Positions 3,951 through 42,036 of a DNA stretch of 64,000 nucleotides are shown one piece after another. Under the pieces are notes generated by a model, which saw only the letters and a list, made by a program, of their open reading frames with translations, did no database searches and was not told the origin of the DNA. Numbering within the stretch: position 1 is the first letter of the stretch; every line of letters starts with the position of its first letter. The stretch lies in the NCBI RefSeq assembly GCF_044324785.1, contig NZ_CP172127.1; one strand, given 5' to 3'. The stretch comes from Escherichia coli (GTDB lineage Bacteria > Pseudomonadota > Gammaproteobacteria > Enterobacterales > Enterobacteriaceae). Both the position numbers and the translations under genes were made by a program.

Positions 3951-4876
<926 letters not shown>

Positions 4877-4927
4877 AGTTCCTCCAGATGGATCGGGTTA
4901 TGAATGCATAAATCTTATCATAATCAT

Positions 4928-6160: not shown

Positions 6161-6196
6161 TCATGACTCCATCAATCGAACGCTGCCGCGGCGTAA

Positions 6197-8928: not shown

Positions 8929-8964
8929 TCAAAAAACCAGCATTTGTTGAAATAGCCGCATATT

Positions 8965-11229: not shown

Positions 11230-11380
11230 GCACCCCTCCGTGTTTATGGAAAGTGTGCAACTTTGTTGAGCGGTTGTCTGGTGGGAGTTTTGCGTTCCCC
11301 GAGGCACGTTCAGAAGAATTTAACGAGAGGGTGAAAACTGTTCAAAACTCTGCGAGGCTGCTTCCAGTTCCAGATTAGAG

Positions 11381-11410
11381 AAATGAAAAAAGCACCCGAC
11401 AGGTGCTTTT
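11381..11410 (-). terminator. Rho-independent terminator downstream of ihfB
   Basis: Minus strand reads AAAAGCACCTGTCGGGTGCTTTTTTCATTT: GC hairpin followed by a T-run. Confidence 0.75.
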
Positions 11411-11435
11411 CTCGCGTTCAAGTTTGAGTAAAAAC

Positions 11436-11720
11436 TTAACCGTAAATATTGGCGCGATCGCGCAGTTCTTTACCTGGTTTAAAGTGAGGAACGTATTTTC
11501 CTTCCAGTTCTACTTTATCGCCAGTCTTCGGATTACGTCCGGTACGTGGTGCGCGGTAGTGCAAAGAGAAACTGCCGAAACCGCGGATTTCAATACGCTC
11601 GCCCTGCGCAAGAGTCGAGGCCATATGCTCCAGCATCTCTTTTACTGCATCTTCAACCGTCTTGGCGGGAATGTGCGATTGCTGGGTGGCAAGTCTTTCT
11701 ATCAATTCTGACTTGGTCAT
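11436..11720 (-). CDS. ihfB: Integration host factor beta subunit
   Basis: 94 aa, [51 protein letters not shown]... Confidence 0.98.
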
Positions 11721-11879
11721 GATTCCTCCGGTTCCTTAAAGGCAAATTTAGCGGCTGCTGTTGCTGCATTGATTAAGGGCGGCCGTAGCCGCCCTTAGTG
11801 CTTGATTACAGGACGAAACCTGCAATCTGTCAAGTAAACTCAACAAACTTCGGAATAAAAATCCCGAAGAGTCAGAGAA

Positions 11880-13553: not shown

Positions 13554-13663
13554 GTTTAATCTTCAGGTTTATATTTAACGTCCACCTGGCTCCATGCCGG
13601 ATGGGGTTGTTTAACATACCCGCTGTCATTCCATTGCAACGGGGGTACTGCAAATTCGGTCGC

Positions 13664-14347
13664 TTATGCGAGAGCCAATTTCTGGCGCGCGTATTGTAGC
13701 GCTTTTTCAATCACTTGCTCAATGCTTAAGGTGGTGGAATCCAACACTAAAGCATCGGCTGCCGGAACCAGTGGCGCTACCGCTCGGTTACGATCGCGGT
13801 CGTCGCGTTCTTTGATCTCGGCCAAAAGGCGCTCAAAGTTAACACTAAAGCCCTTCTCCTGCAACTGTAGCATGCGGCGATGCGCACGTTCTTCCGAGGA
13901 GGCGTCAAGGAAAATTTTCACTGGCGCATCAGGGAATACCACCGTTCCCATATCGCGGCCATCGGCAATCAAGCCTGGTAATTCGCGAAACGCGCGTTGG
14001 CGACGCAATAATGCTTCACGAACGCGTGGGAATGCCGCGACTTGTGAAGCAGCATTCGCCACTTCCTGAGTACGAATTTCGCCGCTGACATCTTCCCCTT
14101 CGAGGATCACTTCCAGATTGCCATTGGTCGACACAAAACGTACATCCAGATGGGATGCCAGCGGCACGAGCGCATCTTCCGATGCAACATCAACATGGTG
14201 ATGTAATGCCGCCAGTGCCAGTACGCGATAAATTGCACCCGAGTCCAGCAGATGCCATTGCAACGCTTCCGCCATAGCCTTACACAAGGTGCCTTTCCCT
14301 GCACCGCTTGGGCCATCAATGGTAATAACCGGGGCAATTGCCGTCAT
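13664..14347 (-). CDS. cmk: Cytidylate kinase
   Basis: 227 aa; P-loop GPSGAGKGT. Confidence 0.97.
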
Positions 14348-24276: not shown

Positions 24277-24317
24277 TTAGATTTGACTGAAATCGTACAG
24301 TAAAAAGCGTACAATAA

Positions 24318-24346
24318 AGGCTCCACGAAAGTGGGGCCTTTTTTAG
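24318..24346 (+). terminator. Rho-independent terminator downstream of pflB
   Basis: AGGCTCCACGAAAGTGGGGCCTTTTTT. Confidence 0.8.
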
Positions 24347-24467
24347 CACGAGAGCCTTTTTTGTCAGCTATCTATACTTTAATGTGACTGCCAAAACAGA
24401 CTCGACGTAGCCTTCGAGCTGCGCACCAACACGGCCTCAGATGGGCCACATCTGGAGAAACACCGCA

Positions 24468-25208
24468 ATGTCAGTTATTGGTCGCATTCACTCCTTTGAA
24501 TCCTGTGGAACCGTAGACGGCCCGGGTATTCGCTTTATCACCTTTTTCCAGGGCTGCCTGATGCGCTGCCTGTATTGTCATAACCGCGACACCTGGGATA
24601 CGCATGGCGGTAAAGAAGTTACCGTTGAAGATTTAATGAAGGAAGTGGTGACCTATCGCCACTTTATGAACGCTTCCGGCGGCGGCGTTACCGCATCCGG
24701 TGGTGAAGCAATCCTGCAAGCCGAGTTCGTTCGCGACTGGTTCCGCGCCTGCAAAAAAGAAGGCATTCATACCTGTCTGGACACTAACGGTTTTGTTCGT
24801 CGTTACGATCCAGTAATTGATGAACTTCTGGAAGTGACCGACCTGGTAATGCTCGATCTCAAACAGATGAACGACGAAATCCACCAGAATCTGGTAGGCG
24901 TTTCCAACCATCGTACACTCGAGTTTGCTAAATATCTGGCGAACAAAAATGTGAAAGTCTGGATACGTTATGTCGTAGTACCTGGCTGGTCTGACGATGA
25001 CGATTCAGCTCATCGCCTCGGTGAATTTACTCGCGATATGGGTAACGTCGAAAAAATCGAGCTCCTCCCCTACCATGAGTTAGGCAAACATAAGTGGGTG
25101 GCGATGGGCGAAGAGTACAAACTCGACGGTGTGAAACCACCGAAAAAAGAAACCATGGAGCGAGTGAAAGGGATTCTTGAGCAATATGGTCATAAAGTGA
25201 TGTTCTAA
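24468..25208 (+). CDS. pflA: Pyruvate formate-lyase activating enzyme (radical SAM)
   Basis: ORF 24441..25208; start at [20 protein letters not shown]; CxxxCxxC motif CLYCHNRD. Confidence 0.95.
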
Positions 25209-25264
25209 AACATCATGTGCAGGCTGAATTCCGACCTGCCACCCCTTCCTTTAGTAGTAAAAAG

Positions 25265-25300
25265 TAAATCAGCGTTGAGAACATGCTCGACGCTGATTTA
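25265..25300. terminator. Bidirectional hairpin between the convergent pflA and bcsC-like genes
   Basis: TAAATCAGCG-N16-CGCTGATTTA inverted repeat. Confidence 0.55.
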
Positions 25301-25342
25301 CTGGATTTAATTTCCGAGTTTTAACCTTCTGATTCTACCTCA

Positions 25343-28300
25343 TTACCAGTCGGCGTAAGGTATCAGCGGCTGCGGCGGTAAATCCATGTCGCCCTGCCAT
25401 CCGGCGGCGGAATACCGCACGTAGAGCAGGAAATGGCTTGGCGCATAATCTTTCGCCTGCTGGATATCAATCGCCGTGCCGACAAACCAGTTGGACGTGA
25501 CGCGACGCTCAAGTAACGCCCGCGCCGTGTAGCCAAAGCCCTGACTGCTGCCGCCGTCGTTGGTCTGACTGGCGGCATCCTCTTTCCAGTCCGTCGGGAT
25601 CAGGTTCATCAGCGGATAACGCGGCATGGTTTTGGTGCGCGAATGCGACCACGAGCCAGACGCACCCAGCTCCCACGACCAGTTTTCCGTCCGCTCCCGC
25701 CACATCACCGGTATGGCAAACGACAGGTATTCCTGCGGGCTGTAGTAACCGCCCTGACCAAGTGAGTAGCCACTCAGGTCTTTGTCGTAATGCCAGATCA
25801 TATTGTTAAGACCAATGGTCACACGGCGATTATTCTGGTTGATGATCTTATAGTAATAGCCCGTCATCCAGCGCACGCGCCAGTTATCTTCGACATTTTT
25901 ACCGGTTAACTGGTCACCGCTAAGCGATGCCCAGACGCCGTTTGCTTCACCTTTATCGTAGCTCAGGCTTAGCCCCACGCCGTCGGCACGCACGCCGCCC
26001 CATTTTTTCCCGGTATTGCTCGGGGAGTCTTTTTGCCCGCCAAAGGCCAGCAAAGAACTGGAGATGGGCCGACGGTGGGCGTTAACGGTGTAACCCAGCG
26101 GCCCGATATCATCGCTGTAACTGATGCCGCCGACCACATCCACCACGTTGAAGCCCATCGGCGTGGTGCCGATATCCCAGCTCCAGACGTCATTTCGCCA
26201 GCCGACCGCCACGCTGGCACCGGAATCCGACTGGCTGCGGTTGCCGCTACAGTCCTGTAATGTACAGGTGCCCCAGTTGTCATCCCATTTGCCATCGGCA
26301 TTAGTGGAGAAACTGCCGACGTTCATATTGACGAAATCACTGCGAAAGAACATCCGCCCGTCAGAGTACGGCGCATCCACCTGCAACATGGTGGTGTGCG
26401 CTTTCAGATCGGAGTAACCACCGGTGCCGCTCGAACCCCAGTAATCGTGCTCGAGGGTGACGTTAAGATCCTGCTGGCGATAGAGGTCCGCTGCATCGCT
26501 GCGCACGCCGCGTTTCAGCCAGTCATCTTTCTCGTCGTTACGGGTCAGCCGGGTAAAGGTGTCGTTATCCTGCGGACGCGTCGTGGTCACACCGGATGCG
26601 ACCATCGCGTCTTTGTAGGTTTCCAGCGCCTGCGTTGGATCGCCCGCCTGCGCTTCAAACTTCGCACCGTCGCGCAGCACCATCGCGCTTTCCATCGACG
26701 GTGGCTGAGATTTTGCCTGCGGGATCAACTTATTAAACGTCTGCTGCGCCGCTGCGGTATCGCCAAGCTGCGCCTGCGCCAGCGCCACGCGCCGCTGAGT
26801 GTTCAGAGAGGCGTTATCAGTGGCGGGCAGTTTCGCCAGCTGGCTACGTGCCGCCGCTTTGTCACCGGCAGCAATATCCACTTCCGTCAGACCAAGAATG
26901 GCATCGGCGTTAGTTGGCTCCCGCGTCAGGACATTCTGATATGCAGCGCGAGCGGCGGTGTAATCACGTCGTTGTTGCGCCCAGTCAGCCAGCGTGAGGT
27001 CAATACGCGAGGAAGGCGGTTGCTGGCGCAGCATCGCTTCCGCTTCTGCCTCTTTGCCGCTTTCTCGCAGGCGATTAGCGGTTTCCAACACCTGATCGCT
27101 TTGCAGTCGATTAACCAGCTCCTGAATATTGCTGCTCCACTGCGCGCGCGGCAGGCTGTTGATATGCGCCAGCGCCGCTCTGTCCTGGTCATGACCAGAG
27201 AGATACAGCCCGTAAGCGTAAACCTGCTCCGGGTCGTTCGGCTTCTGCTGCGCCAGATTGCGCATTAACGTATCGGCCTGGCTGCGTTGTCCGGCCTGCC
27301 AGAGATCCTGTGAAAGTCGGTAAGTAATCCATACACTGCCGGGGTCCAGCGCCAGTCGCTGGCGCTGAAGTGCTGCTGCCTGCGCCCATTTGCCCTGTTT
27401 TTCCAGCGCTTCGGCCTGCTGTGACAAACGGTCATTTTGCAGGCTGCGTTCGATATCATCAATGCTACGCCGCTGACTGGCAGAGAGCGAGGCGATAAAC
27501 GCTTCAGCCTTTTCTGGCGATTGCTGGCGGTATATATTCGCCAGCCCGCGCACGGCGTTAGTGTTGCCGCTGTCCATACGCAAGGTCTGCTGATAATAAC
27601 GTTCGGCGGCGGGATAATCTTTTCGCGCCATCGCCACATCGCCCAGCCCCAGCACTGCATAGCTGTCGGTGTTATCGACATTACGCGCCTGCTGGAACAG
27701 GCGTTCTGCCCGGTCAGGATTATTGGCTTTCAGCGCAGCATCGCCCTGCTGGATCGCCAGCCAGTAGCGGTTTACTTTCAGGAGACTGTTCCATTTGTCG
27801 TTGTTGCTGCTGTGCGGATCCAGGGCGAGGGCTTTTTCCAGATTCGCCACCGCATTGGCGCGATCGCCTTTCTGAGAATACGCCTGGCCCAGCGCTCCAA
27901 ATATGGCACCAGAGTCAGGATTATCAATATTAAGTATTTTCAACTGACGAATCGCTTCGTTGCGACGGGAGGCAATTTGCGTCATTGCCCCCCAGTATTC
28001 CAGCGCCATTTCGATATCTGGCGGTGCACCGTTAAATAGCTTGTCGTAACTGTCGATAGCCTCTTTATGTCGCCCGGAGATAGCTTGTAAGCGTGCCATT
28101 TGCAGTGCCTGACGCCCCTCAGGCGAAGAAAGTCGCATGGCCGTGCGCGATGCTTTATATATTTTTGAATCAGGAGCGAGCAGGGAAAGTCTGGCAAGTT
28201 GTTTTTGCGCGCCTTCAATATCTCCCTTACGCAGCAGATAGCGAAAACGCGCCGCAACGACATCTGGATTATCAGGTTCCGCCAATTCAAGACGATAAAG

Positions 28301-28450
28301 CGACTGTTCGACCAGATCTTCACGATGAATGTCTTCGCCTAACCGAATCTGCGCCATTAACAGCTTGTGTGCAGTTGGTGTGGCTTTCGCCATCGACATT
28401 ACCGCCAAACCAAGGGATATTGTGAGTAAATTTAGGGTGAATTTGTACAT
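25343..28450 (-). CDS. BcsC-like exopolysaccharide export protein: N-terminal TPR repeats plus C-terminal outer-membrane beta-barrel
   Basis: 1035 aa; N-terminal signal peptide; long TPR-like repeat region; C-terminus rich in alternating aromatic/glycine strands and ending in W. Visibly more GC-rich than the genes upstream of it in the cluster. Confidence 0.8.
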   Translation of the reverse strand: MYKFTLNLLTISLGLAVMSMAKATPTAHKLLMAQIRLGEDIHREDLVEQSLYRLELAEPDNPDVVAARFRYLLRKGDIEGAQKQLARLSLLAPDSKIYKASRTAMRLSSPEGRQALQMARLQAISGRHKEAIDSYDKLFNGAPPDIEMALEYWGAMTQIASRRNEAIRQLKILNIDNPDSGAIFGALGQAYSQKGDRANAVANLEKALALDPHSSNNDKWNSLLKVNRYWLAIQQGDAALKANNPDRAERLFQQARNVDNTDSYAVLGLGDVAMARKDYPAAERYYQQTLRMDSGNTNAVRGLANIYRQQSPEKAEAFIASLSASQRRSIDDIERSLQNDRLSQQAEALEKQGKWAQAAALQRQRLALDPGSVWITYRLSQDLWQAGQRSQADTLMRNLAQQKPNDPEQVYAYGLYLSGHDQDRAALAHINSLPRAQWSSNIQELVNRLQSDQVLETANRLRESGKEAEAEAMLRQQPPSSRIDLTLADWAQQRRDYTAARAAYQNVLTREPTNADAILGLTEVDIAAGDKAAARSQLAKLPATDNASLNTQRRVALAQAQLGDTAAAQQTFNKLIPQAKSQPPSMESAMVLRDGAKFEAQAGDPTQALETYKDAMVASGVTTTRPQDNDTFTRLTRNDEKDDWLKRGVRSDAADLYRQQDLNVTLEHDYWGSSGTGGYSDLKAHTTMLQVDAPYSDGRMFFRSDFVNMNVGSFSTNADGKWDDNWGTCTLQDCSGNRSQSDSGASVAVGWRNDVWSWDIGTTPMGFNVVDVVGGISYSDDIGPLGYTVNAHRRPISSSLLAFGGQKDSPSNTGKKWGGVRADGVGLSLSYDKGEANGVWASLSGDQLTGKNVEDNWRVRWMTGYYYKIINQNNRRVTIGLNNMIWHYDKDLSGYSLGQGGYYSPQEYLSFAIPVMWRERTENWSWELGASGSWSHSRTKTMPRYPLMNLIPTDWKEDAASQTNDGGSSQGFGYTARALLERRVTSNWFVGTAIDIQQAKDYAPSHFLLYVRYSAAGWQGDMDLPPQPLIPYADW

Positions 28451-28562
28451 GCCTGCCTCAATCAGGTGTTAACTCACTTTTTATTAAAAACAGAACGGGC
28501 GCAGCTCCCTGCCTGTATAAAGTCAGGACAGAATGGAGCCGCAAAATAGAAATGATGATGAA

Positions 28563-29166
28563 TTACTGTTGATGAGGGTTCAGACGACGGCGACTAATGT
28601 TACGTAACAGACTCCATACTACCCACGCCAATAGCACCACACTGAGAGTTGCCAGCACTGCCAGTAGAATGGGATGTCTGGCTAACACATATTGCACTCG
28701 TTCAATCCAGGGGAGATGCCCAACGTAATAAGTATCTCCAACTCGTAAACTATTGATGCCAGATTCACGAATAACCGCGACTGAACCAAAAATATTGCCG
28801 CGTTTTGTACTATTAATTAACGCATTGTTGAGTAGCGTATCTCCGCGTGATCCCTCGGACATTAAAGCAATTACGCTGCGTTGGGTATGATATGGAGACT
28901 GAAAACCAACTATCGCCGCCATTGGCAATGGAGAATTTATAGTTGTTTGTATTTCAGGTTTTTGATCGTCGTTATCTGTCATAATTTTGGCGTAATCAGA
29001 GTGTCGTATTGGGCTTTTTACCCAACTTGTTGTTGCCTCAATGAGCAGATTAATTTGCTGATTGTCTGCAAATTCTTGCGGAAGTCTTCCTATTAACAGG
29101 ATATCTGAATCCTTGCCCTGGACAGAACCTATATCATCAGTAATTGTCAGATTAATTGCCGGAGAT
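28563..29166 (-). pseudogene. BcsB-like subunit, 3' fragment, separated from its 5' part by IS2
   Basis: Frame is open (no stops, checked codon by codon) from the IS2 junction at 29166 down to the stop at 28563; C-terminal TM anchor HPILLAVLATLSVVLLAWVVW...RRR typical of BcsB. In frame with the 5' fragment once IS2 and one GAGAT copy are removed. Confidence 0.8.
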
Positions 29167-29177
29167 TGGATTTGCCC

Positions 29178-30083
29178 CTATATTTCCAGACACCTGTTAT
29201 CACTTAACCCATTACTGGCCTGCTGCCGCAGATATTCCCGTGGCGAGCGATAACCCAGTGCACTATGCGGATGCCATTCGTTATAATGCTCGAACGCCTC
29301 TGCAAGGTTCTTTGCTGCCGTTAACCCGTCTGGTTTAGGCATGATACTGATGTAGTCACGCTTTATCGTTTTCACGAAGCTCTCTGCTATGCCGTTACTC
29401 TCCGGACTCCGCACCGCCGTGTTCTTCGGTTCAAGCCCCAACATCCGGGCAAACTGCCGTGTTTCATTAGCCCGGTAGCATGAACCATTATCCGTCAGCC
29501 ACTCTACTGGAGACGCCGGAAGCTCGTTGCCGAAGCGGCGTTCCACCGCTCCCAGCATTACGTCCTGTACTGTTTCACTGTCGAAGCCGCCCGTAGTGAC
29601 TGCCCAGTGCAGTGCCTCACGGTCACAGCAGTCCAGCGCGAACGTGACTCGCAGTTTTTCTCCGTTATCACAGCGGAACTCGAACCCGTCAGAGCACCAT
29701 CGTTGATTGCTTTCTTTCACGGCCACTTTGCCAGTATGTGCCCGTTTCGATGGCGGTACAGCGGTTTTTCGCTCAAGCAACAGCGCATTCTGGCGCATGA
29801 TCCGGTAAACACGTTTGGCATTGATCGCAGGCATACCATCAAGTTCGGCCTGTCTGCGAAGCAGCGCCCATACCCGACGATAACCATACGTGGGCAGCTC
29901 TCCGATAACATGGTGTATACGGAGAAGCACATCCGTATCATCTGAGTGACGGCTGCGGCGACCATCTTTCCAGTCATCGGTTCGTCTGAGAATTACGTGC
30001 AACTGCGCACGCGACACCCGGAGACAACGGCTGACTAAGCTTACTCCCCATCCCCGGGCAATAAGGGCGCGTGCGCTATCCAC
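29178..30083 (-). CDS. insD: IS2 transposase OrfB (InsD; DDE integrase domain)
   Basis: 301-aa [33 protein letters not shown]...; overlaps orfA near a T6/A6G slippery run at about 30084-30090. Confidence 0.9.
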
Positions 30084-30406
30084 TTTTTTGCACGCCCGTA
30101 TTCAACGGCTTCTTTAAGGAGTTCATTTTCCATCGTTTTTTTGCCGAGCAGGCGCTGGAGTTCTTTAATCTGCTTCATGGCAGCAGCAAGTTCAGAGGCA
30201 GGAACGACCTGCTCTCCTGCGGCCACAGCAGTAAGACTTCCCTCCTGGTATTGCTTGCGCCAGAGAAATAACTGGCTGGCTGCCACACCGTGTTGCCGGG
30301 CAACAAGGGAGACCGTCATTCCCGGTTCAAAACTCTGCTGAACAATAGCGATCTTTTCCTGTGTAGTACGCCGTCTGCGTTTCTCCGGTCCTAAGACATC
30401 AATCAT
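30041..30406 (-). CDS. insC: IS2 OrfA (InsC; helix-turn-helix)
   Basis: [40 protein letters not shown]... Confidence 0.9.
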
Positions 30407-30497
30407 CTGCTCTCCAATGACTAGTCTAAAAACTAGTATTAAGACTATCACTTATTTAAGTGATATTGGTTGTCTGGAGATTCAGGGGGCCAGTCTA

Positions 30498-32199
30498 GAG
30501 ATCCAGTTTGAGCACCAATCAGTCCAAGGGTATTTAATAATGTTTCAACTTGCGTTGTGCCAGGATTTTCAGGCATAACCACAACCGTTTCTGATAGATC
30601 GGCCATGCGGCTAAATGGAAAGCCTGAGCTGGCAAAAGCGCGTAAATCTGGCATTGCGATAAAGTGATGGTACTTTGAAAAATCGATAGTGGAATCATCT
30701 GCAATAACCGCATGATTTTTTAGCGACCGGGAAATAATACAGCTATCGGCATCAGAGCGCGGCATTGTATTAACGTACTCAAAATTAAATCGCAATTGAT
30801 TAAGCGCCCCTAACGTCAGCGCAGGAATGTTAATTTCATTATTACCATCCAACAATTCTTGCAATAACGGTAAACGTAACAATAACCTATCAGTAGCAGA
30901 TTGCGGACTCAGCCGGAAAGATTCAAGGTACTGGTTATTAAGGCTGACATCCATGCGTGAACCACCTATCGTTGGCGTGGTATAACGATAGTTAATCTTC
31001 ATCTCACCCCCACGATTACGCAATAGAAAGAGATCAGGTGGCAAATTAAATGAAACATTAATTGCCGCAGACTCCAGGGCACTTGCCTGTAACTGCCCTT
31101 CATAATTTTTAAGCTCTGCGAAAGTTACAGGACGATCAGTGCGTATCCAGTTTGGCGCATCATAAGGTTTACGCGGCAGTAACGGCTTCACGTCATTTAC
31201 GACCACGCTATCGCCGCGAAATAATATATTTCCCTGTGCAAGGCCTTTTGCCGCCTGTAATAAATCTTTATCATCGCGGCCCAAAAGTACCAGCAATTTG
31301 ACAAAGGGATTTTGTGGATGACTGATCATTTTAATAACAGGCGCATTCACCAACGGATGCTCGCGCAGAAAGTCTGGGCGTCTATTGTTCGTGGCAAAGA
31401 CTACTGCATTACTTTCCGGTAACTGGTTATAGAAAACCGGAAATCGGTGACCACGCCAGCCAGATTGCGAACCAAACCACGAAGCGACAATAGCTGATAC
31501 CTGCTGCAAACCAGTCCCAGGAGTACCGGCAAAAACCATCGGCAATGTATTAGGGCGGTTATCTCGCGGATCAAAGAACGGTACAGGAAGATATGAAAGA
31601 TCATTTTTCAAATTGAGTCTCTGAACTACCAGTTCAAGTTCACTGGTACGTCCAATATCAAGCCACAAATTGCCGCTGGTCGGGTTTTCGCAGGCGCTCT
31701 GGTAGTGACTAATTAATTCTAGGCGCAAGCGATTAAAATCCGAAAAATACAATGGGTTAAGAGTTATTTCCGCCAGCGTTTTCTTCCCCAGTTGTTCTTT
31801 GGTAATCGGCAATACCTCCATCAACTCGTCATTAAGATAGACCTTAAGCTGTGACTGGACCGGGATCAGCGACGGTGATGGAGTGTATTCAAGTTTTAGT
31901 TTCGCTTCTGACACTATTTCATCGCTACGCATACCAAACTCAATTTGCCCCTGTGGGTTAACTCCATTCAGGACTATGTTTCCTGGCGCTGGTGCGATTT
32001 GTGTAAATGGGAGTTTAAAATAGCGAGATGGCTCTTTCACATAAGCAGAGATATTTTCTTTCGGGATAGCGGGTAATACTCCGACTGAGGAAGGCTTATG
32101 AATTACTGTATCTGTAGCCGATGCTGTATTTGCCTGGTAAAAACATAGTAACCCCAAGCCAATTATTGCAGCACTTAATCTCAAAAATTTTCTTTCCAT
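30498..32199 (-). pseudogene. BcsB-like periplasmic subunit, 5' fragment, truncated by the IS2 insertion
   Basis: ORF 30448..32220 reads into IS2; probable start MERKFLRLSAAIIGLGLLCFYQANTASA (signal peptide); BcsB-like blocks such as EFGMRSDE and LKVYLNDELMEVLP. Confidence 0.8.
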
Positions 32200-32258
32200 T
32201 TTAAAAAATTCAACAACCATAATAAATACAAATAATATATTTAATTAGCAATCAGAAA

Positions 32259-34379
32259 TTAGAACTGACTTTTAGAACTGCCTTTCAGTGTCCGGAGAAT
32301 ATAAAAAACCATATTGCAATAACCTTTCAGAGAGATAAAACATATTTCAATAAAACTCTTTAAAATATTGTCTCGTTTAATTTTATCATTCCACTCTTGC
32401 CATAGTGAATCACGAGAAAACGTTGCTCTGACATAATTAACATTTTGTTCATGACTCATTGGCATAATCTTCAGACCAATTTTATTATTGTAGGCATGAA
32501 CTATTTCTACCGGTATATCACACTTTCCGTTACTATCATCCAGATAAAGAGACAACCGCTGTGTTTTAACAATATTTTTTACGTCGGAGATATTATCAAG
32601 GATAACGCCTAATCCTCCTTCGGAAAAATCAAGAACAGAACAAGGATAGCTCCGTCCATCTTCCAGTTGTATAACGCCCTTGAAAGAAACATCAATACGG
32701 GGAGAAAAACGCACCTGCTTTTGTTCAATAGAAACAGCCAAAGTTGCGCCAATAATAATTGTATTATAAAACAGCCAAATCAAACAAAAAAAATTCAGGA
32801 TGGCGATATGCCCTTGCAAACTATAAACATTAACAATACCTATTATCAGTCCAATTACATTTAAAATGGCAAAAATAAGATAGGGGTAGGAAATTCGCCA
32901 GTCAACAAACTTATTTTTTATCAGCCCTCCTTTGGCCGTAACGTTGAAACGCCCTTTTGCTGGTGCAAGTAAAGCTACAAGAGTTGGTAGCGTAATATAC
33001 CAAGCCAGAACCATTTCATAAATCTCATTCCAGAATGAATGTCTGTATTTACCCTGTACTCTTGAATTAGTTAAAATAATAACAAATAAATAAGGTAAAA
33101 CATAAGACATAATATCTGCAACCGATGCTTCGATCAGGTTGACCGAAAAGAAAATAGGACATAACGGTGCGAACAAGAAAATCAGTCGTGGCACACCTGA
33201 TAAAAAATGCATCATGCTGCTGAGATAGCAAAGGCGCTGTGATAATGTCAGCCCCTTGCCCAATAATGGATTGTCAATACGCAAGATTTGAATCATGCCT
33301 CGAGCCCATCGAATCCGTTGTCCAATATGAGCAGACAATGTTTCTGTGGCTAGCCCGGCAGCCAGAGGATAGCGAAGATATGCAGAGCTATAACCTGCAC
33401 GATGCAAGCGTAACGACGTATGCGCATCTTCAGTTACTGTTTCGACTGCAATGCCTCCAACCTCATCCAGAGCAGATCTACGGATGATTGCACATGAACC
33501 ACAAAAAAATGAAGCATTCCATGTATCCGTACCATTCTGGATTAACCCATAAAAAAGGTGTCCTTCATTTGGCTTTTGCCGAAACTGCCCCAAATTTCGC
33601 TCAAAAGGATCGGGGGAAAAAAAATGATGTGGTGTTTGCAACATCGATAATTTTTTATCTGCAATAAACCAGCCCATCGTTTTCTTTAAAAAAGATACCG
33701 AGGGTATATGATCGCAATCGAAAATAGCAACAAATTCGCCATTAGCTATTTTAAGCGCATTATTTATATTTCCGGCCTTAGCATGTTCATGTGTTTCTCT
33801 TGCGACATAGTAAATTCCTGACTCGTTCGCAAATTTCCTGAACTCATCCCTGGCGCCATCATCAAGGATCCAGATATGTAATTTATCCTTTGGCCAGTCT
33901 AAAGCCAACGCACCATAAACTGTATTCTTCACGACTGTAAAAGGTTCGTTATATGTGGGTATTAATATATCTACGATGGGCCATTCTTCTTTATTCTCTG
34001 GTAAAGGTATACTTTCTCTGTTCAGCGGGAAGCAAACCTGAAAGTAACCAAGTAATAAAACAAACCAAGCATACGTTTCAGCAGTTAATAACGTGACTGA
34101 AAATAAGCAGTCTGGAAATTCATTCAGGATGACTGAAGAAGAGTACCGCCACCATAGATATCGGGATGAGATGAGTATTCCAACACCCATTAATATCAGG
34201 GTAATCATCCTTCCCTTGAACAAATTAAGGAAAATGACAGCGATGCAAATAATAATTGAAAATAATATTTGTTGATAAAATCCAAGTGGCTGCTCAACAA
34301 TTGATAAAAAGACAAAACATAGCAATATAGCAACAACCAAAAGGATTTTGTTTAATATTTCTTTATTTTTTAAGATCAT
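32259..34379 (-). CDS. BcsA-type processive family-2 glycosyltransferase (cellulose-synthase-like) with C-terminal PilZ c-di-GMP receptor domain
   Basis: 706 aa; DDG, DCD, TED and QRIRW catalytic motifs; FFCGS; gating-loop FNVTAK; PilZ RFSPR (RxxxR) and DFSEGG (DxSxxG); multiple TM helices. Very AT-rich DNA. Confidence 0.85.
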   Translation of the reverse strand: MILKNKEILNKILLVVAILLCFVFLSIVEQPLGFYQQILFSIIICIAVIFLNLFKGRMITLILMGVGILISSRYLWWRYSSSVILNEFPDCLFSVTLLTAETYAWFVLLLGYFQVCFPLNRESIPLPENKEEWPIVDILIPTYNEPFTVVKNTVYGALALDWPKDKLHIWILDDGARDEFRKFANESGIYYVARETHEHAKAGNINNALKIANGEFVAIFDCDHIPSVSFLKKTMGWFIADKKLSMLQTPHHFFSPDPFERNLGQFRQKPNEGHLFYGLIQNGTDTWNASFFCGSCAIIRRSALDEVGGIAVETVTEDAHTSLRLHRAGYSSAYLRYPLAAGLATETLSAHIGQRIRWARGMIQILRIDNPLLGKGLTLSQRLCYLSSMMHFLSGVPRLIFLFAPLCPIFFSVNLIEASVADIMSYVLPYLFVIILTNSRVQGKYRHSFWNEIYEMVLAWYITLPTLVALLAPAKGRFNVTAKGGLIKNKFVDWRISYPYLIFAILNVIGLIIGIVNVYSLQGHIAILNFFCLIWLFYNTIIIGATLAVSIEQKQVRFSPRIDVSFKGVIQLEDGRSYPCSVLDFSEGGLGVILDNISDVKNIVKTQRLSLYLDDSNGKCDIPVEIVHAYNNKIGLKIMPMSHEQNVNYVRATFSRDSLWQEWNDKIKRDNILKSFIEICFISLKGYCNMVFYILRTLKGSSKSQF

Positions 34380-34463
34380 TATACTTAGCGATTCATTAAC
34401 AATACAGCTTGAATAGTGTGATTTTTATAAACATTGATGACCAATGCCATGCAAATTTAAATA

Positions 34464-35795
34464 TCAACACCACGTTATCTGTGCTCTGCCATTTTGCTTA
34501 CTTTTGTATAACCGTTCATCTGCCAGCAATTTCAACCGTTCAATGTTATTCATGCACTCATCTGTACTGGCAACTCCTATGCTGCAACTACAATTTAACC
34601 CACCGATTGCGAAATGAACAACTCTGTGCAAAATTCTTGATAGTTTATTTTTATCTTTCTCATAATAAATAATAGCAAACTCATCACCGCCAAACCGGTA
34701 TATTTCCCCTTCACGACGGGGTAACTCATCTTTAATAAGGTTAACAAGTTTGATGAGTACTTCATCACCAAACAGATGGCCAAACTTATCATTAATGGTT
34801 TTAAATTTATCCACATCAAATAGACACAGGTAGCCAAAATTCTTGCTCAGCATCTTGATTTCCTTATCAAAACTCCGACGACCAGAAGCCCGAGTTAATG
34901 CATCACAAGTGCCAAAGTCATATATCTCTCGAATTGCATTAATCTCTTCCGTATTAAAGAATAGATTTTCTCCACATAAATCATATTGATGATTCGATAA
35001 TATAGATTCTTTTTCCAATCTACCCTTATTTATAATATTTCGTAGTAATTTAATATAATAAACATACAGTATAACTGCAGATATTGCCGATGCAAAAACG
35101 AATAGCATACATATATAGAGATATTTACTTTTTTTATAGGCAACAATAAACATCATTTCTGGAAGGTAAGAATACGACAGAGTGATAGCTGACATCTCAA
35201 ATACAGCATCATTTATCAAAAAATCATCACCTGTGATTTTCTTTTCATTATCATTAATATCATAAAATGAGATATAGATATCTTCTCGTTCCCCTGACTG
35301 ATTTCTAATCAAAGATAAATAACGTTCAGGATCTACCACTGATATCAAAATTGTTCGTTTGGCAATGGGATGAGCATAATAAACATAGTACTTATCTTTT
35401 AAACCAATAACACCTCTCTCAAATTCGTTCATTACTCGAATAGAGGAAACTATGTCGCCACAAAAATCATCCCCTTTCGTTGTAACTTTGATACATTTAC
35501 CATCGCTAATAATATAAGGACCGAGATCATACAAATATCCAGGATTTTCATAGCCAGCAAAGCTATTGCGTATTTTTTTTACCAATTCTTCTGGGGCAAT
35601 ATCTAGTTCATAAAATATATCATTAGATACTGAGCGGCGATACTCAGAAACATTAGCTATTGCAAGCCCACTATCTACAATAGATACCTTCACCGAATTA
35701 ATGCGGCCCTTAACATAAATGGTGTATAAATAACAAGTTACTACAGCGACGAACAAAAAACAGATTACTGCCGCCTTTTTCTTATATTTGAACAT
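34464..35795 (-). CDS. Membrane-bound diguanylate cyclase (two TM helices flanking a periplasmic sensor, then GGDEF)
   Basis: 443 aa; intact RFGGDEF active-site motif; no RxxD I-site five residues upstream; about 200-aa periplasmic region containing a Cys pair. Confidence 0.8.
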   Translation of the reverse strand: MFKYKKKAAVICFLFVAVVTCYLYTIYVKGRINSVKVSIVDSGLAIANVSEYRRSVSNDIFYELDIAPEELVKKIRNSFAGYENPGYLYDLGPYIISDGKCIKVTTKGDDFCGDIVSSIRVMNEFERGVIGLKDKYYVYYAHPIAKRTILISVVDPERYLSLIRNQSGEREDIYISFYDINDNEKKITGDDFLINDAVFEMSAITLSYSYLPEMMFIVAYKKSKYLYICMLFVFASAISAVILYVYYIKLLRNIINKGRLEKESILSNHQYDLCGENLFFNTEEINAIREIYDFGTCDALTRASGRRSFDKEIKMLSKNFGYLCLFDVDKFKTINDKFGHLFGDEVLIKLVNLIKDELPRREGEIYRFGGDEFAIIYYEKDKNKLSRILHRVVHFAIGGLNCSCSIGVASTDECMNNIERLKLLADERLYKSKQNGRAQITWC

Positions 35796-35799
35796 TGCT

Positions 35800-38148
35800 T
35801 TATTTTCTTTTTTTCGGTTTGCTGTCTATATGCCATTCTGAAAACGGTAGCGGTTTCTGGTATAAGTATCCCTGAACATGAGAGAATCCTAATTTTTGCA
35901 ATTCTCTGGCCTGACTTTCAGTTTCAACACCTTCAGCTATTACCGGCATATTTTCTTCACGAGCAAGGCTGGATATAAAGTACACAATTTTGTTAGTTTC
36001 GTTGAAAATACCAGAGGTAAACTCTGAATCAATTTTAATACTATCAGGTCTTACTTTATAAAGTTTTTTCAGGTCAGCTAATCCACTACCGAAATCATCA
36101 AGAGAAATCTTGATACCGTTTTCTTTTAAAATGTTTATATTATTGTAAAAGCTATCATTTATATCTTTTACTGCTGACTCGGTGATCTCCAGACAGATTT
36201 GTTCAGCATTTACATCAAATGCATTAATTAAAGTAAGAACACGAGTGTGGAAGTCAATTTCATTTAATTGCCATGGAGAAACATTGATATGCAGGAGAAA
36301 ATCGTTAGCAACCTCATATTCACGGCTAAAGGCACCAAATTCGCTAATAGCCGTTTCGAGAATAAAATCACCCAGTTCTTTAATTAATCCTATTTCTTCA
36401 GCAACAGGTACAAAAATTGATGGCGGTATTGCCCCATTTTCGACGGATAACCAGCGGCATAACGCCTCAGCACCGACAACCCTATTATTATCCATATCAA
36501 CAATCGGTTGATATACTAAATAAAGTTCACTACTCAAAATCGCTTTTTTTATATTTCCTGCCACCCAGACCTTTTGATCAAGTTCATGAACTTTGATATC
36601 ATCATAAAACATAAATTCAGATTCTTTATTTTCCCGCATAGCTGTTAATGCCAGTTTCAACTTCCCTTCATAAATCGAAACATTTTCCCCTGAAAAAGTT
36701 TCACAAATGGCAATCTTATGAATATAAATATTTCTTATGCAAAATATATGTTCAGGGAAGTTTAAAACAGATAATCTTTCGATGAACTCTTCGCAGTGCG
36801 TGTGGCACAGCAACAAGTATGTTTCAGTTGAGAATTTTACGATATCACAATATTTTGAATATTTTTGTGAAATCTTCGATTTTATATCATTAACAATTTC
36901 ATAAAATTTCTGACTTCCATATATCGCCTCAACAAACTCTAATCCATAGATGCAAAGCATACCAACTGCCAAATAGGTTTTATTATTAGTTTCAATAACA
37001 GCCTTATTAATATAGAAACAACTTCCTTGTTCATAGGACACAAGATTAAGTAAACGGTCCATACGCTCCTTGTATTTATCACTGATATTATTAATGATTT
37101 TTTTGAGTTCAACAATTTCGCTACTATCATTTTGCACAATATCAATTGTGTCATTGCGATATACTGAGTTAGCTAATTTTTTCAGATGTTCTATTAGTTT
37201 ACTGGATTCTCGTTTAATTTTTTTTGTTATATTTTCAACGATATACCATAATAAACAGAAACAAACCAAGCCACATAAAAACATCAATGTAAAATATTTA
37301 TTGATGTTTGCATCTTCTGCTTTTTGATAGTAAAAGTAATGGAATCTGACATCAGGAAGCCTGGGGAGTGAGATAATATTGTCTGTATAGTTTCCACTAT
37401 TATTACTTATGTTATAACTTCCCGATGACTCACGGACAATAAGATGTAACATTGATTTTTCATTACCTACCATTATCCTTTTATTTTGTTCCATGAATAG
37501 AATATCAGCATCACTACCTAGTTTATTTAAAAAATTACTGAAATATTTTTCATCAAGATCCAGATGCATTAACTTCAGAGCAAATGAATCTTTTTCTTCT
37601 TCGGATGGCCGTAGTGAAAACGAAAAACATTTTTTTCCGGCAATACCATAACAATTATACCATGGTGACCATTTTGAATAAGTCCCTGCCGGTAATTTAT
37701 TCCAGGGGCGTGATTCCGGGTTAAAGTAGTTATCGCTAATATTACCATCGTCCCCAATAAAAGGTTTGCCGGCTTCTGATTTCCCCAGGAATTTTACCTC
37801 ACCATCCTCAGTTCGAATAAAGCTAAGATAGTTTCCATTATTGAGCATTATCCCTACTAAATTAACAGCGTCTATTTTTTTCATGCGATGAAGGACTGCT
37901 CGCTTTATTTCACCTTCATCATTTAACAGATAAATTGCATCTTTTAATGCATCAGCCTCTTTTTCAACTTTAGAAAAAAAATTATTCAAATTGTTATTGA
38001 TGAGTATAAGGTTAATCCGTGAAGAGTTTTCTGCTATTTTTTTATGGAAGTCAATTGCGGTAATAAATGAAAAGACAATATAGACAGTAACAGCTAATAT
38101 AACCGCAGTGTTAAATCTTGAGTTTAATTTTTCGGTAATGCTATACAT
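35800..38148 (-). CDS. Membrane-bound c-di-GMP phosphodiesterase (periplasmic sensor, degenerate GGDEF-like linker, EAL)
   Basis: 782 aa; EAL-domain residues present (GAEALCRW, QICLEITES, ISLDDFGSG, IKIDSEF, AEGVETE, VQGYLYQKP); no GGDEF motif in the middle domain; two TM helices flank a roughly 250-aa periplasmic region. Confidence 0.8.
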   Translation of the reverse strand: MYSITEKLNSRFNTAVILAVTVYIVFSFITAIDFHKKIAENSSRINLILINNNLNNFFSKVEKEADALKDAIYLLNDEGEIKRAVLHRMKKIDAVNLVGIMLNNGNYLSFIRTEDGEVKFLGKSEAGKPFIGDDGNISDNYFNPESRPWNKLPAGTYSKWSPWYNCYGIAGKKCFSFSLRPSEEEKDSFALKLMHLDLDEKYFSNFLNKLGSDADILFMEQNKRIMVGNEKSMLHLIVRESSGSYNISNNSGNYTDNIISLPRLPDVRFHYFYYQKAEDANINKYFTLMFLCGLVCFCLLWYIVENITKKIKRESSKLIEHLKKLANSVYRNDTIDIVQNDSSEIVELKKIINNISDKYKERMDRLLNLVSYEQGSCFYINKAVIETNNKTYLAVGMLCIYGLEFVEAIYGSQKFYEIVNDIKSKISQKYSKYCDIVKFSTETYLLLCHTHCEEFIERLSVLNFPEHIFCIRNIYIHKIAICETFSGENVSIYEGKLKLALTAMRENKESEFMFYDDIKVHELDQKVWVAGNIKKAILSSELYLVYQPIVDMDNNRVVGAEALCRWLSVENGAIPPSIFVPVAEEIGLIKELGDFILETAISEFGAFSREYEVANDFLLHINVSPWQLNEIDFHTRVLTLINAFDVNAEQICLEITESAVKDINDSFYNNINILKENGIKISLDDFGSGLADLKKLYKVRPDSIKIDSEFTSGIFNETNKIVYFISSLAREENMPVIAEGVETESQARELQKLGFSHVQGYLYQKPLPFSEWHIDSKPKKRK

Positions 38149-39247
38149 ACTGGTGTTCTGACTAAAATGTTATCAATAGCTTTAATATAAGATCGTATAA
38201 AGTTCTGTATATTAGCCGATGTTACCCTCCTCTTTATGACTTTCTTAATTTCATTATCCCCATATAACAAATATGTCATGATGAGAAGATTAATTTTTTC
38301 TTAATTTCCACAAGTGATTATCATGCTTCTTATTTTAACCAGAACAATATTGTTATATGTAACACTCATCTTTGTATCTTTCACCCACGCTACCGCCTTT
38401 CGTTAATCATTCAACGAAATAATTTAGATATGAAAAAATTACCCTGTAACAACACAACTAGCACATCCTGCCGAGTTGTGACATCTACTCTATAATTATC
38501 CAAAAGAGGTATTAGTATCTATTGTCAGTAATCCATTCTGTTTATTTATCTTATTTAAGACATGTGTAATACGACTCTCTTAGCCCAAATATATTAATCA
38601 GTAACTTTAAAGTAAGATTTAGTCAGAAAGTGATCGTGAAAATTTCACTGCCCAGGCTGTAATTTGTCCATCAACCTAACAGATAAATATTTTCAGGAAC
38701 ACACGTTCGATAAAACAATAGATGCAACATTAGAGCACTATTTTATTTTTAAAACAAAAGACTGTGAACTACACCAGGCATGAGAAGATTCTGTCGTGAG
38801 ATGATTTTTTCCAGATTAAAACACTATAAAATATAACTTTTACAGAATATTACGCCAGTAAATCAATATGCCATCTGCATATTCAAACAATAACTGCAAT
38901 CATTCTCAGCAAATTTAACCATAATTAGCAACGTGCAAATTCATTGATGCAGATCAAAAATCCGAGTTTACATTACCAATCTTTGTTGAAAATTTAGCCG
39001 TAAAAATCATGTTATTACTATACGCAAGAGTTTACTCCAGAGCCCAAAATAATAACTTGCAAAATAACCAATAATTAAAACTATCACCATATCTAAAAAT
39101 AAAGGTCTCCGATAACTAAAATTCGTATTATCACGGTAGCGTTGATATTCTTCCATCTCTTAAGAAAAACTTAACTTTTACCCTATCAGGCCTGATCTAA
39201 TTTTAAACTATTTGATATCATAGCCCCGGCGAACCGGGGCATGATGA

Positions 39248-40678
39248 CTATTTTGTATTCGCTTTACGTGCAAGCAGCGGGAATATCAGCCCCAGTCCAA
39301 CGAGGACAAATGGCGTAGTTATGTTCAGTGCCAATTGGAATGTCCACTCTGCAGTGAAGGCTTCCATTTTAGGGAAAATTCCTGTCAGGCAGGCAAAAGC
39401 GGTAAAGGCAAAACACCAAATTCCGACGGTCATTGCCAGCGGCTTATTACGAATAAAGACATATTCCGGCTTATATTTCTGCGCCAGGCGAACAACTGCA
39501 ATAAATGCAACAAATACCCATAAATAACGCAGCGGCATCACTACCGAGTTAAGATTCAACAGCCATTTATAGAGATTGTTCATATCACCAATGCCGAGAG
39601 TCGGCAGCATTATCAGGATCGCCACCAGCACCAGGGTCAGAAAATAGCCATTAACGGGCGTACCAGAAGCGTTGGTACGACATAAACTGGCTGGAATATA
39701 TTTGCTGTCAGCATCGCCTAATAACACTTTAAGCGGCGCATCAATCGAGAATACCAGCGCAGCTACTTGTCCCAGGGTATTCGCAATGGCATAAATCACC
39801 ATTAAAGTATTACCCATGTTGTAATACTCGCCCAGCTTCTGAAAGGCGTAATACTGACCGTTAGTCATTAAGTCATCCGGGATATTACGCGAGTCAAACA
39901 TCATCCCCATCGCCAGTGAGCCCAGAATGGCACAAACCGCAACCATCACCGCCAGACATAACATCCCTTTTGGAAATTCTTTTCCTGGGTTGCGCGTTTG
40001 ATTAACGTAAGGAGAAATCTTCTCTGCTCCGCCAACCGCGAAAACCAGCATTGAAATAGTGGTAATGTAGGTAAAGTCGATATGAGGAATGAACGTTTCC
40101 CAGGTAATGTTTGTGGTCGCAATATGCACTTCAGTAATCGCAGGCGCGGTTACCGCCATCGCCACATACAGGAGCGACATAACAAACATCGCAATCCCTG
40201 CCACAGAACCGACGATTTTCAGCGATTTCATACCGCGTGAAGCAACCCACATAAAGAAGATAAACAGCACCAGCGTTAACCCCTGTAACGCTACGACTGA
40301 ATATTCTTTGATTAGCGAACCGTCGCCTTTCATCGCCCAACCGAGCGCAATCAGTATTGCCTGGGGTTTTTGTGCCAGATAGGGAATATGCACTACCCAG
40401 TAGGTCCACGCGGCGAGGTAAGCCAGTCCGGGTCCCATCGTGTGTTTAATCCAGGTACTGACCCCGCCCTTCCCATCTTTGAAGGTCGAGCCTAACTGAC
40501 CAACAATTAGCGCATAAGGTGTGAAATAGAGCGCAAAGATAAACACCCACGAAAAAACAACCACCAGCCCCTGGTTGGCGTAGTTATTAACAACGTTGCC
40601 AAAACCCCAGACAGTGATAAAAGACATCAGCGCAATGTTGTACCATCGCAGCTGTTTTTCCTGAACATTCCCAGCCAT
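39248..40678 (-). CDS. ycaM: APC-family amino-acid/polyamine transporter YcaM
   Basis: ORF 39248..40870; likely start at the internal MAGNVQEKQLRWYNIALMSF...; polytopic membrane protein. Confidence 0.85.
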   Translation of the reverse strand: MAGNVQEKQLRWYNIALMSFITVWGFGNVVNNYANQGLVVVFSWVFIFALYFTPYALIVGQLGSTFKDGKGGVSTWIKHTMGPGLAYLAAWTYWVVHIPYLAQKPQAILIALGWAMKGDGSLIKEYSVVALQGLTLVLFIFFMWVASRGMKSLKIVGSVAGIAMFVMSLLYVAMAVTAPAITEVHIATTNITWETFIPHIDFTYITTISMLVFAVGGAEKISPYVNQTRNPGKEFPKGMLCLAVMVAVCAILGSLAMGMMFDSRNIPDDLMTNGQYYAFQKLGEYYNMGNTLMVIYAIANTLGQVAALVFSIDAPLKVLLGDADSKYIPASLCRTNASGTPVNGYFLTLVLVAILIMLPTLGIGDMNNLYKWLLNLNSVVMPLRYLWVFVAFIAVVRLAQKYKPEYVFIRNKPLAMTVGIWCFAFTAFACLTGIFPKMEAFTAEWTFQLALNITTPFVLVGLGLIFPLLARKANTK

Positions 40679-40887
40679 AGACAAATCCTTCGCCAAAATT
40701 AAAGGGGCATCTGTAAAACGAGGGATTATGCGCGGCAAATAAGAAGTGCGGAAATAGCGAAATGCAAAATTATAACCTGCTGCACATTTTATTTTGAAAC
40801 GAATAAAATTTGGAAAAAAGCAAGTCAGAGAGAAGAAACAGAAAAGCAGAGTGTGAAACAGTAAGTTCACACTCTGCGTTAATTCAT

Positions 40888-42036
40888 TTACACGTGAGCA
40901 ACGGGTTTCGGCGTATGACCGGCGTTGCGAAGCAGCATCAGCAAATAGATAAACGATACGCTGGCGATCATGATAAACAATAAATTATCGGAGAAATTCT
41001 GCATTAGCATGGCAGTAAATGACGGGCCAAGCAGACTTCCCACAGTATAGCTCAACAGTAAGGCCTGGTTCATCGCCACCAGTTGATGATGTTCAACTTT
41101 CTCGCAAGCCCATGCCATCGCCACCGGATATAGCGTAAAGCCAGCGGCACCGAGGATGAATAACGCTGGGGCCATCGCCGCCTGGCTAAGCATCGCGATA
41201 CTGCCGAGAATGACGACAAAGACCTGAACACGCAACACCAGCAGTCGACCAAACTTATCCGCCAGACGTCCGATCGGCCATTGTCCGAGGATACCCGCAC
41301 TGACCAGTACCGCCATCCAGAAACCAATGCTGGCATTGCTCACCCCTTTGTGATTGAGGTACAGCGGCATCAGGCCATATAGAGATCCCAGCACGATTCC
41401 TGAGATAATGCAGCCATTCACGCCAAGCCGCGCCTGACGGAGTTTTAGCATTGACGTAATTGACGTCGAATCATGGTTTTCAGCCTGCTGATTCAGCACA
41501 CGCGTAAACAACAGCGGTAAGATCCCTGCCAACGTCAAACCTGTAACCCACGGCAATACGCTCATCAGCTCGGTTGAGACTTTGCTGACCAGTAACTGGC
41601 CTAAAAACGTTCCCACGTAATAAACCATCATGTATGCGGCAAGCAAACGCCCACGGTTACGTGACGTCCCACTGCACATCAGCGCGCTCTCAACGACTAC
41701 CCAAATCATGGCACAGCCGACGCCCGCGACAAAACGCCACGCCAACCAGCTCCAGAAACCAATCATCAGGCCAAGGCCGACACAGCCAGCGGCAAAAATG
41801 AAGGAGGCCAGATAATAGCTGCGGTTAAAGCCAATGCGCTTAATGACATACCCTGTCAGCAATGTACCGACCAGGTTGCCGGTAAAATAGGATGAGCTGA
41901 CAACGCCTACCTGCCATGTGGACATGTGTTCCTGGGCGAGCCAAAGCGGCACGAGTGTATTTAACACTGCGATCGCCAGAGTCAACAAAAGCAGGCCAGA
42001 CAGCAAAAGCATGACAGGCCGGGTATACGTGGACAT
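40888..42036 (-). CDS. ycaD: MFS transporter YcaD
   Basis: 382 aa, 12-TM-like profile; synteny. Confidence 0.85.

Follow-up and report, generated by a model that had tools for sequence, protein, structure and literature searches.

The 64,000-nucleotide (nt) stretch of Escherichia coli DNA analyzed here (contig NZ_CP172127.1 of assembly GCF_044324785.1; below, the window) contains an open reading frame (ORF) of 706 amino acids (aa) at positions 32259–34379 on the minus strand, which starts with ATG and encodes BcsA, the catalytic subunit of cellulose synthase. With a probability of roughly 0.85, it belongs to an Escherichia-restricted operon of the BcsA3 type that occupies an island of AT-rich DNA, bordered by pflA and ycaM, and has been inactivated here by the insertion sequence IS2. 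A short BcsA without accessory genes is an already known type of cluster and not a new one; it is covered by RefSeq and by a 2025 preprint, and as such adds little. The sole element beyond the literature covered is the bcsC gene of the same operon, which is chimeric and apparently maintained by gene conversion.

The identity of the ORF follows from profiles, Pfam domains, alignments, and motifs. The protein exceeds the cut-offs of two curated NCBIfam equivalogs for the UDP-forming cellulose synthase catalytic subunit, NF008558 (1014.1 vs. 992) and TIGR03030 (843.3 vs. 699.1). It consists of four transmembrane (TM) segments, a GT2 domain, four more TM segments, and PilZ; Pfam places the GT2 domains at residues 136–408 and PilZ at residues 555–651 (5.7e-11). 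Among solved structures, the top match is E. coli BcsA (7LBY, 9B8V, 9FMV; E = 3e-260), with residues 15–700 of the query aligned almost without gaps to residues 154–836 of 7LBY. Rhodobacter BcsA comes next (E = 1e-108), and the alignment with 5EJ1 begins at residue 7 of the latter. BLASTP against K-12 BcsA yields 52.9% identity (query 14–700, K-12 150–836), and the global identity is 41.9% (365/872 identical residues). The architecture is settled by the 53% identity to the solved structure 7LBY.

The motifs of processive GT2 enzymes, ILDDG171, DCDH221, VTED315, and QRIRW354, are all present and identical in the 7LBY alignment. In addition, the protein has HHFFSPDPFERN251 and FFCGS291, the gating loop FNVTAK478, and the PilZ motifs RFSPR557 and DFSEGG584. 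An earlier note on this DNA, made from the sequence alone, had claimed that the catalytic and gating signature and PilZ are retained, and every motif has indeed been found; of the structure-guided alignments that the note proposed as a check, the one to E. coli BcsA shows all catalytic residues kept. The same note described the N-terminus as short compared to the ~870-aa enterobacterial BcsA. This agrees with alignments starting at residue 150–154 of E. coli BcsA, of which ~150 N-terminal and ~35 C-terminal residues are absent. The length itself, on the other hand, is standard, since Rhodobacter BcsA aligns from residue 7 and the TIGR03030 model comprises 714 positions. The 706 aa thus form a BcsA of normal architecture, without the N-terminal extension of the enterobacterial protein and without its ~35 final residues. 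In a hydropathy scan, four hydrophobic segments precede the GT domain, the first at residue 12, and K-12 BcsA has the same four from residue 150. The ~870-aa enterobacterial protein is a form with an extra domain that recruits BcsG (PMC11379886).

In May 2025, a preprint from the Römling laboratory (Hosseinpourlamardi et al.; 10.1101/2025.05.09.653004) described BcsA2, BcsA3, and BcsA4 in E. coli. According to it, BcsA2 and BcsA3 are restricted to Escherichia, lack ~150 N-terminal and ~30 C-terminal residues with all motifs kept, and are encoded in clusters consisting of bcsABC only, BcsA3 on the chromosome and BcsA2 mostly on p0111 plasmids; YliE- and YliF-like genes adjoin these clusters, and cellulose unmodified for want of BcsG is predicted as the product. 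The window has a short BcsA, a chromosomal bcsABC cluster, YliE/YliF-like neighbors, ~41% identity to BcsA1, and homologs of this class in Escherichia only. The references for the BcsA3 class are HDP8224287.1 and WP_000576412.1, and the window protein was compared to the class by description. An E. marmotae protein is 90% identical to the window BcsA, and this species is among those for which a BcsA3 is given in the preprint; the BcsA2 reference of the preprint, located on plasmid A of strain S56, is also among our hits, with 74.6% nucleotide identity.

The gene is already annotated in RefSeq, as the 706-aa protein is identical to WP_052432435.1 of E. coli N3. The latter is the closest complete genome (NZ_CP031609.1), with bcsA 100% identical. 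Overall, the gene is found in 10 of the 5426 complete E. coli genomes; the exact protein is encoded on 214 public contigs, and the cluster at 90% identity has 414 members, including E. ruysiae. The closer homologs, at 90% and 73% identity, come only from Escherichia and are followed by canonical enterobacterial BcsA of 867–874 aa at 52–56%. A version of the window BcsA truncated to 392 aa is recorded on 119 contigs, among them those of E. coli KTE69 and KTE37, an indication that the accessory synthase has decayed independently elsewhere.

Downstream of bcsA, the bcsB gene is split by a full-length, 1331-bp IS2 (29167–30497, minus strand, in the orientation of the operon). This element of the IS3 family carries ORFs of 136 and 301 aa, aligns with K-12 IS2A end to end and without gaps at 95.7% identity, and is flanked by a 5-bp target duplication, GAGAT, at 29162–29166 and 30498–30502. 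The 5' fragment of bcsB (30498–32199, minus strand) comprises codons 1–567 and a 16-codon read-through into IS2 up to a stop; it matches positions 1–566 of the 766 in NF008325 and is 65% identical to residues 1–579 of K-12 BcsB. The 3' fragment (28563–29166, minus strand; codons 568–766) matches positions 629–765 of 766 in the NCBIfam BcsB model and holds the C-terminal amphipathic helix and the TM anchor, parted from the signal peptide and the start codon. Relative to N3, IS2 is a 1331-bp insertion after codon 567 of 766, and once IS2 and one of the two GAGAT copies are removed in silico, the ORF again spans 766 aa, with two residues different from N3 BcsB. The phosphodiesterase encoded in the operon, BcsA, and BcsC are identical to the N3 proteins. 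In N3, 06-00048, and MS 21-1, bcsB is intact, and the IS2::bcsB junction occurs in none of the 5426 complete E. coli genomes; therefore, the insertion is recent and strain-specific.

The amphipathic helix and TM anchor at the C-terminus of BcsB are described as indispensable for polymerization in a review (PMC8892547, citing Omadjela et al., 2013). A functional BcsAB core needs an intact BcsB with the signal peptide and the C-terminal anchor on one polypeptide, and here they are encoded on separate ones. With the BcsB tail and the signal peptide cut apart, the source strain most likely has no functional accessory system.

The earlier note saw in this locus a minimal BcsABC system. The bcsA, bcsB, and bcsC genes are there, but the operon is headed by a dedicated phosphodiesterase and a cyclase, and bcsB is disrupted. 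It is unlikely that the cluster works in this strain as a minimal BcsABC system, making and exporting a glucan without accessory proteins. In favor of such activity, IS2 has left four of the five proteins whole (BcsA, BcsC, the phosphodiesterase, and the cyclase), and only the cyclase departs from N3, by a 3-aa deletion. Moreover, the core BcsB, being 65% identical, might conceivably replace the broken one, and it is only the C-terminal tail, still encoded at 28563–29166, that the review reports as indispensable in vitro (PMC8892547). However, IS2 separates the BcsB signal peptide and domains D1–D3 from this tail. A 139-aa ORF with the tail (28563–28982) might be expressed from IS2, but it has no recognizable Shine-Dalgarno sequence or other obvious ribosome-binding site, and there is no signal peptide that would bring its N-terminal part of ~110 residues to the periplasm. 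In addition, IS2 may have a polar effect on bcsC.

Even less probable is a synthase of some other beta-glucan (mixed-linkage, beta-1,3, or cyclic). The glucan linkage cannot be read from sequence, the strict enterobacterial equivalog NF008558 is passed only narrowly, and BcsA-like "orphan" proteins have been proposed to make other glucans (PMC10237404). Still, the protein is 53% identical, almost without gaps, to a structurally characterized cellulose synthase over the whole catalytic and channel region. All signature blocks of cellulose synthases are present, including HHFFSPDPFERN, FFCGS, and QRIRW; so is PilZ, and the co-encoded BcsB and BcsC are 65% and 66–97% identical to proteins of cellulose systems. 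To our knowledge, non-cellulose BcsA-like synthases of the BgsA or CrdS type have neither PilZ nor BcsB and BcsC partners, and the window protein was not placed among them, as all three are found here. Least probable of all is a 5'-truncated pseudogene of the core bcsA. In its favor, ~150 residues at the start of the core BcsA have no counterpart here, and outside Escherichia the nearest relatives belong to the canonical enterobacterial BcsA; however, the identity to the core BcsA is only 53%, the ORF starts right before the first TM segment and aligns with Rhodobacter BcsA from residue 7 of the latter (5EJ1), and a length of 701–706 aa is kept across lineages of E. coli, E. marmotae, and E. 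ruysiae that have diverged by 10–27% in protein sequence. This conservation of a full-length ORF in diverged lineages led us to reject a truncated pseudogene.

Several points weigh against an inactivated BcsA3-type operon as well. Neither the accessions of this protein nor its carrier strains were found in the supplements of the preprint, and BcsA3 has been assigned by description. The experiments of the preprint concern a BcsA4 strain only, and for BcsA3 both the production of cellulose and its lack of phosphoethanolamine (pEtN) are predictions (10.1101/2025.05.09.653004). As to the inactivation, the loss of function is inferred from sequence, and both the possible complementation by the core BcsB and the possible expression of the tail from IS2 count against it. 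Finally, the core bcs operon was seen in N3 only, and the source strain is known here from the 64-kb window alone.

No bcsZ, bcsQ, bcsR, bcsE, bcsF, or bcsG was found in the window by tblastn with the K-12 proteins (best E = 0.56), and the same search recovered BcsA, BcsB, and BcsC at E = 0. The island bases are fully covered by five genes, one insertion sequence, and a 1.1-kb leader, with no unassigned coding space. This bears out the statement of the earlier note that the locus lacks these genes; the note had also suggested a tBLASTn search of the surrounding genome, and there the result is mixed, as none of the genes is in the window but all are intact elsewhere in the closest genome. In particular, the core cluster of N3 (bcsG, F, E / bcsR, Q, A, B, Z, C; 1,192,892–1,207,084) is complete and unflagged. 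Two bcsC loci are present in each of the nine genomes that carry the island on the chromosome; a core bcs operon in trans has been seen directly in N3 and is implied for the other eight.

An intact copy of the operon is expected to work as follows. The two enzymes whose genes precede bcsA, a GAPES2-GGDEF cyclase and a CHASE9-EAL phosphodiesterase, would set the local level of cyclic di-GMP (c-di-GMP), and the synthase is inferred to be regulated by this adjacent pair. Binding of c-di-GMP to the BcsA PilZ domain would free the gating loop, and the GT2 domain would then join UDP-glucose into a beta-1,4-glucan threaded through the membrane channel of BcsA itself, a polymerization step expected to require the C-terminal membrane tail of BcsB. 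The glucan would leave the cell via BcsC, with the first four tetratricopeptide repeats (TPRs) of the island type and the remaining TPRs and the porin derived from the core gene. Periplasmic BcsZ might be supplied in trans by the core operon. In the source strain, the recent IS2 insertion in bcsB leaves no full-length BcsB.

The product of an intact copy should be cellulose without pEtN. In E. coli, the N-terminal domain of BcsA (~140 residues) and its C-terminus recruit three copies of BcsG, the pEtN transferase (Verma et al., 2024; PMC11379886). As BcsA3 lacks the BcsG-recruiting termini, unmodified cellulose is predicted even in a BcsG-positive cell. The unmodified glucan suggested by the earlier note is therefore a reasonable prediction, given that these termini are absent from the 706-aa BcsA.

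The chimerism of the island bcsC is essentially certain. The gene encodes 1035 aa, compared to 1157 aa in the core BcsC. Its 5' part (27899–28450, minus strand; 552 nt) is of the island type, covers the first 176 residues, approximately TPR#1–4, and is 71% identical to K-12 bcsC at the nucleotide level and 66% at the protein level. The 3' part (25343–27898, minus strand), encoding the remaining TPRs and the beta-barrel porin, is of the core type: nt 553–3108 match K-12 nt 919–3474 with 96.1% identity over 2556 nt, and the similarity stops exactly at the stop codon. In the global protein alignment, residues 1–176 of the island BcsC correspond to K-12 residues 1–176, and residues 177–1035 to K-12 residues 299–1157, K-12 residues 177–298 (122 codons) being absent at the island junction near 27898. 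The core-type tract matches 5422 of the 5426 E. coli genomes at 95–99% and is 96.9% identical to the core bcsC of N3 itself.

Three island lineages, only 84–95% identical to one another overall, share this junction, and their core-type tracts are 96%, 95%, and 88% identical to K-12. Between the island tract and the core bcsC of N3, we found 79 differing sites that are strongly clustered: consecutive segments of 250, 390, 1280, and 636 nt contain 1, 28, 13, and 37 of them, respectively, and exact runs reach 338 nt. Over the central segment of 1280 nt, the island gene shares alleles with the N3 core gene, from which it has 13 differences compared to 33 from K-12. Clustered mismatches of this kind are the pattern that patchy gene conversion would leave. 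In four draft assemblies of the E. marmotae type, the contig with the island ends 27–220 nt past the bcsC junction, and the public "partial" island-type BcsC proteins are contig-end fragments of 201–300 aa. Both are the expected effect of a near-identical repeat on short-read assembly; in the MS 21-1 and E. marmotae lineages, it is these breaks alone that point to homogenization. No non-chimeric full-length island-type BcsC was found, a search with the first 185 aa yielding only contig-end fragments and fragments of core BcsC.

According to Verma et al. (2024; PMC11379886), TPR#1–4 correspond to BcsC residues 21–179, and the docking site for TPR#1 is a groove of BcsB. At the published BcsC–BcsB contacts, the island pair differs by Q30L and I57A in BcsC and by F163Y, I164F, and V209L in BcsB, and the remaining contact residues are conserved. 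A cognate BcsB-docking module may thus have been kept on a borrowed exporter, with the core-type tract repeatedly homogenized by ongoing gene conversion, a reading to which we would give even odds. If so, the accessory bcs clusters of Escherichia could be hypothesized to have no independent outer-membrane exporter. In the preprint, the clustering of BcsC is said to be concordant with that of BcsA, with no mention of recombination (10.1101/2025.05.09.653004), and a domain swap in BcsC would contradict this concordance.

The island (25209–39248; 14,040 bp including IS2) lies between the stop codons of pflA and ycaM, where it replaces ycaN–ycaK of K-12. The alignment of the K-12 pfl–dms region to the window ends exactly at 25208 (pflA stop) and 39249 (ycaM stop), the flanks are 97.7–97.8% identical to K-12, and the window is E. 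coli chromosome. The island boundaries are the same in the three E. coli island lineages. The GC content is ~50% in the flanks, 33% in the phosphodiesterase gene, 34% in the cyclase gene, 37.5% in bcsA, 44% in bcsB, and 57% in bcsC. In assemblies of the E. marmotae type, the island is found at the same site, but most of ycaM is gone, and the predicted EAL protein is shorter, with 709 or 694 aa, or, on one contig, split into 462 and 231 aa.

The operon is read from the minus strand in the order pdeI-like EAL gene, dgcI-like GGDEF gene, bcsA, bcsB, bcsC. The first gene (35800–38148, minus strand) encodes a 782-aa c-di-GMP phosphodiesterase similar to PdeI (YliE), with a periplasmic CHASE9 sensor (Pfam, 6e-39), a TM segment, a degenerate middle region, and an EAL domain (2e-64). 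It is 39% identical over the full length to K-12 PdeI, also of 782 aa, and has all of the EAL, NVS, EITE, DDFG, KID, EGVE, and QG motifs. The second gene (34464–35795, minus strand) encodes a 443-aa diguanylate cyclase similar to DgcI (YliF), 42% identical to K-12 DgcI, with a TM segment, GAPES2 (2e-39), another TM segment, and GGDEF (2e-24), and with RFGGDEF at residue 369. The residues YFL, present in the first TM segment of the N3 cyclase, have been lost here by an in-frame deletion of 9 nt at window positions 35757–35762, which leaves 443 aa instead of 446. The deletion sits at a short direct repeat (TTTTTTGT).

Upstream of the operon is an AT-rich non-coding leader (38149–39248, minus strand), presumably the operon promoter region, with ORFs of at most 51 aa. 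The GC content of this 1.1-kb segment is ~30–33%, and N3 and MS 21-1 align there within an 84% full-length match. The leader is a candidate for a regulatory region silenced by H-NS. An Rfam scan of 24000–41000 (E ≤ 0.1) yielded no riboswitch and a single chance match to an archaeal snoRNA model. In a promoter and terminator scan of the island, the counts equaled the expectation from shuffled sequences, and only a seemingly perfect hairpin with a 17-bp stem at 25263–25302, between the convergent pflA and bcsC, stood out. It is likely to be a bidirectional terminator and probably lies on the island side of the pflA boundary.

In E. coli, according to the preprint, possession of a second bcs operon is not stably favored (10.1101/2025.05.09.653004), and the IS2 insertion, together with truncated and split genes in other carriers, fits this view. 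A BcsA3 operon in a host that makes pEtN-cellulose would provide a natural test of whether modified and unmodified cellulose are produced side by side in one cell. Similarly, with its chimeric bcsC, the island offers a natural experiment as to the part of BcsC that must match its BcsB; if our interpretation is true, this natural domain swap marks the part that confers partner specificity.

Compared to the core BcsA1 of the type II, pEtN-cellulose system (7LBY, 9B8V, 9FMV), the window BcsA has 53% identity from the first TM segment to PilZ, the same catalytic, gating, and c-di-GMP-binding motifs, and the BcsB and BcsC partners. Unlike BcsA1, it has neither the N-terminal domain of ~140–150 residues nor the extended C-terminus, and the operon has no bcsRQ, bcsZ, or bcsEFG. 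The locus is thus not of type II, both BcsA termini and the bcsE/F/G and bcsR/Q genes being absent from it. With the BcsA–BcsB complex of Rhodobacter (Cereibacter) sphaeroides (4HG6, 4P00, 5EJ1), it shares the architecture and the length class, and the BcsB of that complex is likewise a tail-anchored co-polymerase. However, the similarity is much lower (1e-108 vs. 1e-260 to E. coli), and phylogenetically the window BcsA is of the enterobacterial type. The phosphodiesterase and cyclase genes resemble the K-12 pair pdeI–dgcI (yliE–yliF) in gene order, in the CHASE9-EAL/GAPES2-GGDEF domain composition, and in length (782 and 442–443 aa), but the identities are only 39% and 42%, and the pair, which stands alone in K-12, is here joined to bcs genes in one operon.

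The closest known systems are the BcsA3 clusters (10.1101/2025.05.09.653004), similar in being chromosomal and bcsABC-only, with shortened BcsA termini, retained motifs and PilZ, YliE/YliF-like neighbors, and a global identity to BcsA1 of ~41% (41.9% in the window). By contrast, in the window bcsB is split by IS2 and three quarters of bcsC are of the core type; the pflA–ycaM site is not named in the text of the preprint. The BcsA2 cluster on S56 plasmid A (NZ_CP010243.1; WP_074014783.1) also has a short BcsA (701 aa) followed by bcsB, and a related cluster has 73% protein identity to the window BcsA. Unlike the island, the S56 cluster is plasmid-borne, and a group II intron and IS200 lie between its bcsB and bcsC; in the region 2769–13691, the intron reverse transcriptase and the IS200 transposase are encoded between bcsB2 and a 126-nt stub of bcsZ. 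The EAL and GGDEF genes near that cluster are fragmented, and an IS2 beside its bcsC is 99.8% identical to the window IS2. As in the island, the plasmid bcsC is core-derived, with 3585 nt 97% identical to the K-12 bcsZ stub and bcsC, but it is a full-length core-type gene of 1157 aa with the 3' stub of bcsZ, and not an in-frame chimera. The BcsA2 plasmid cluster appears to have captured the core bcsC independently.

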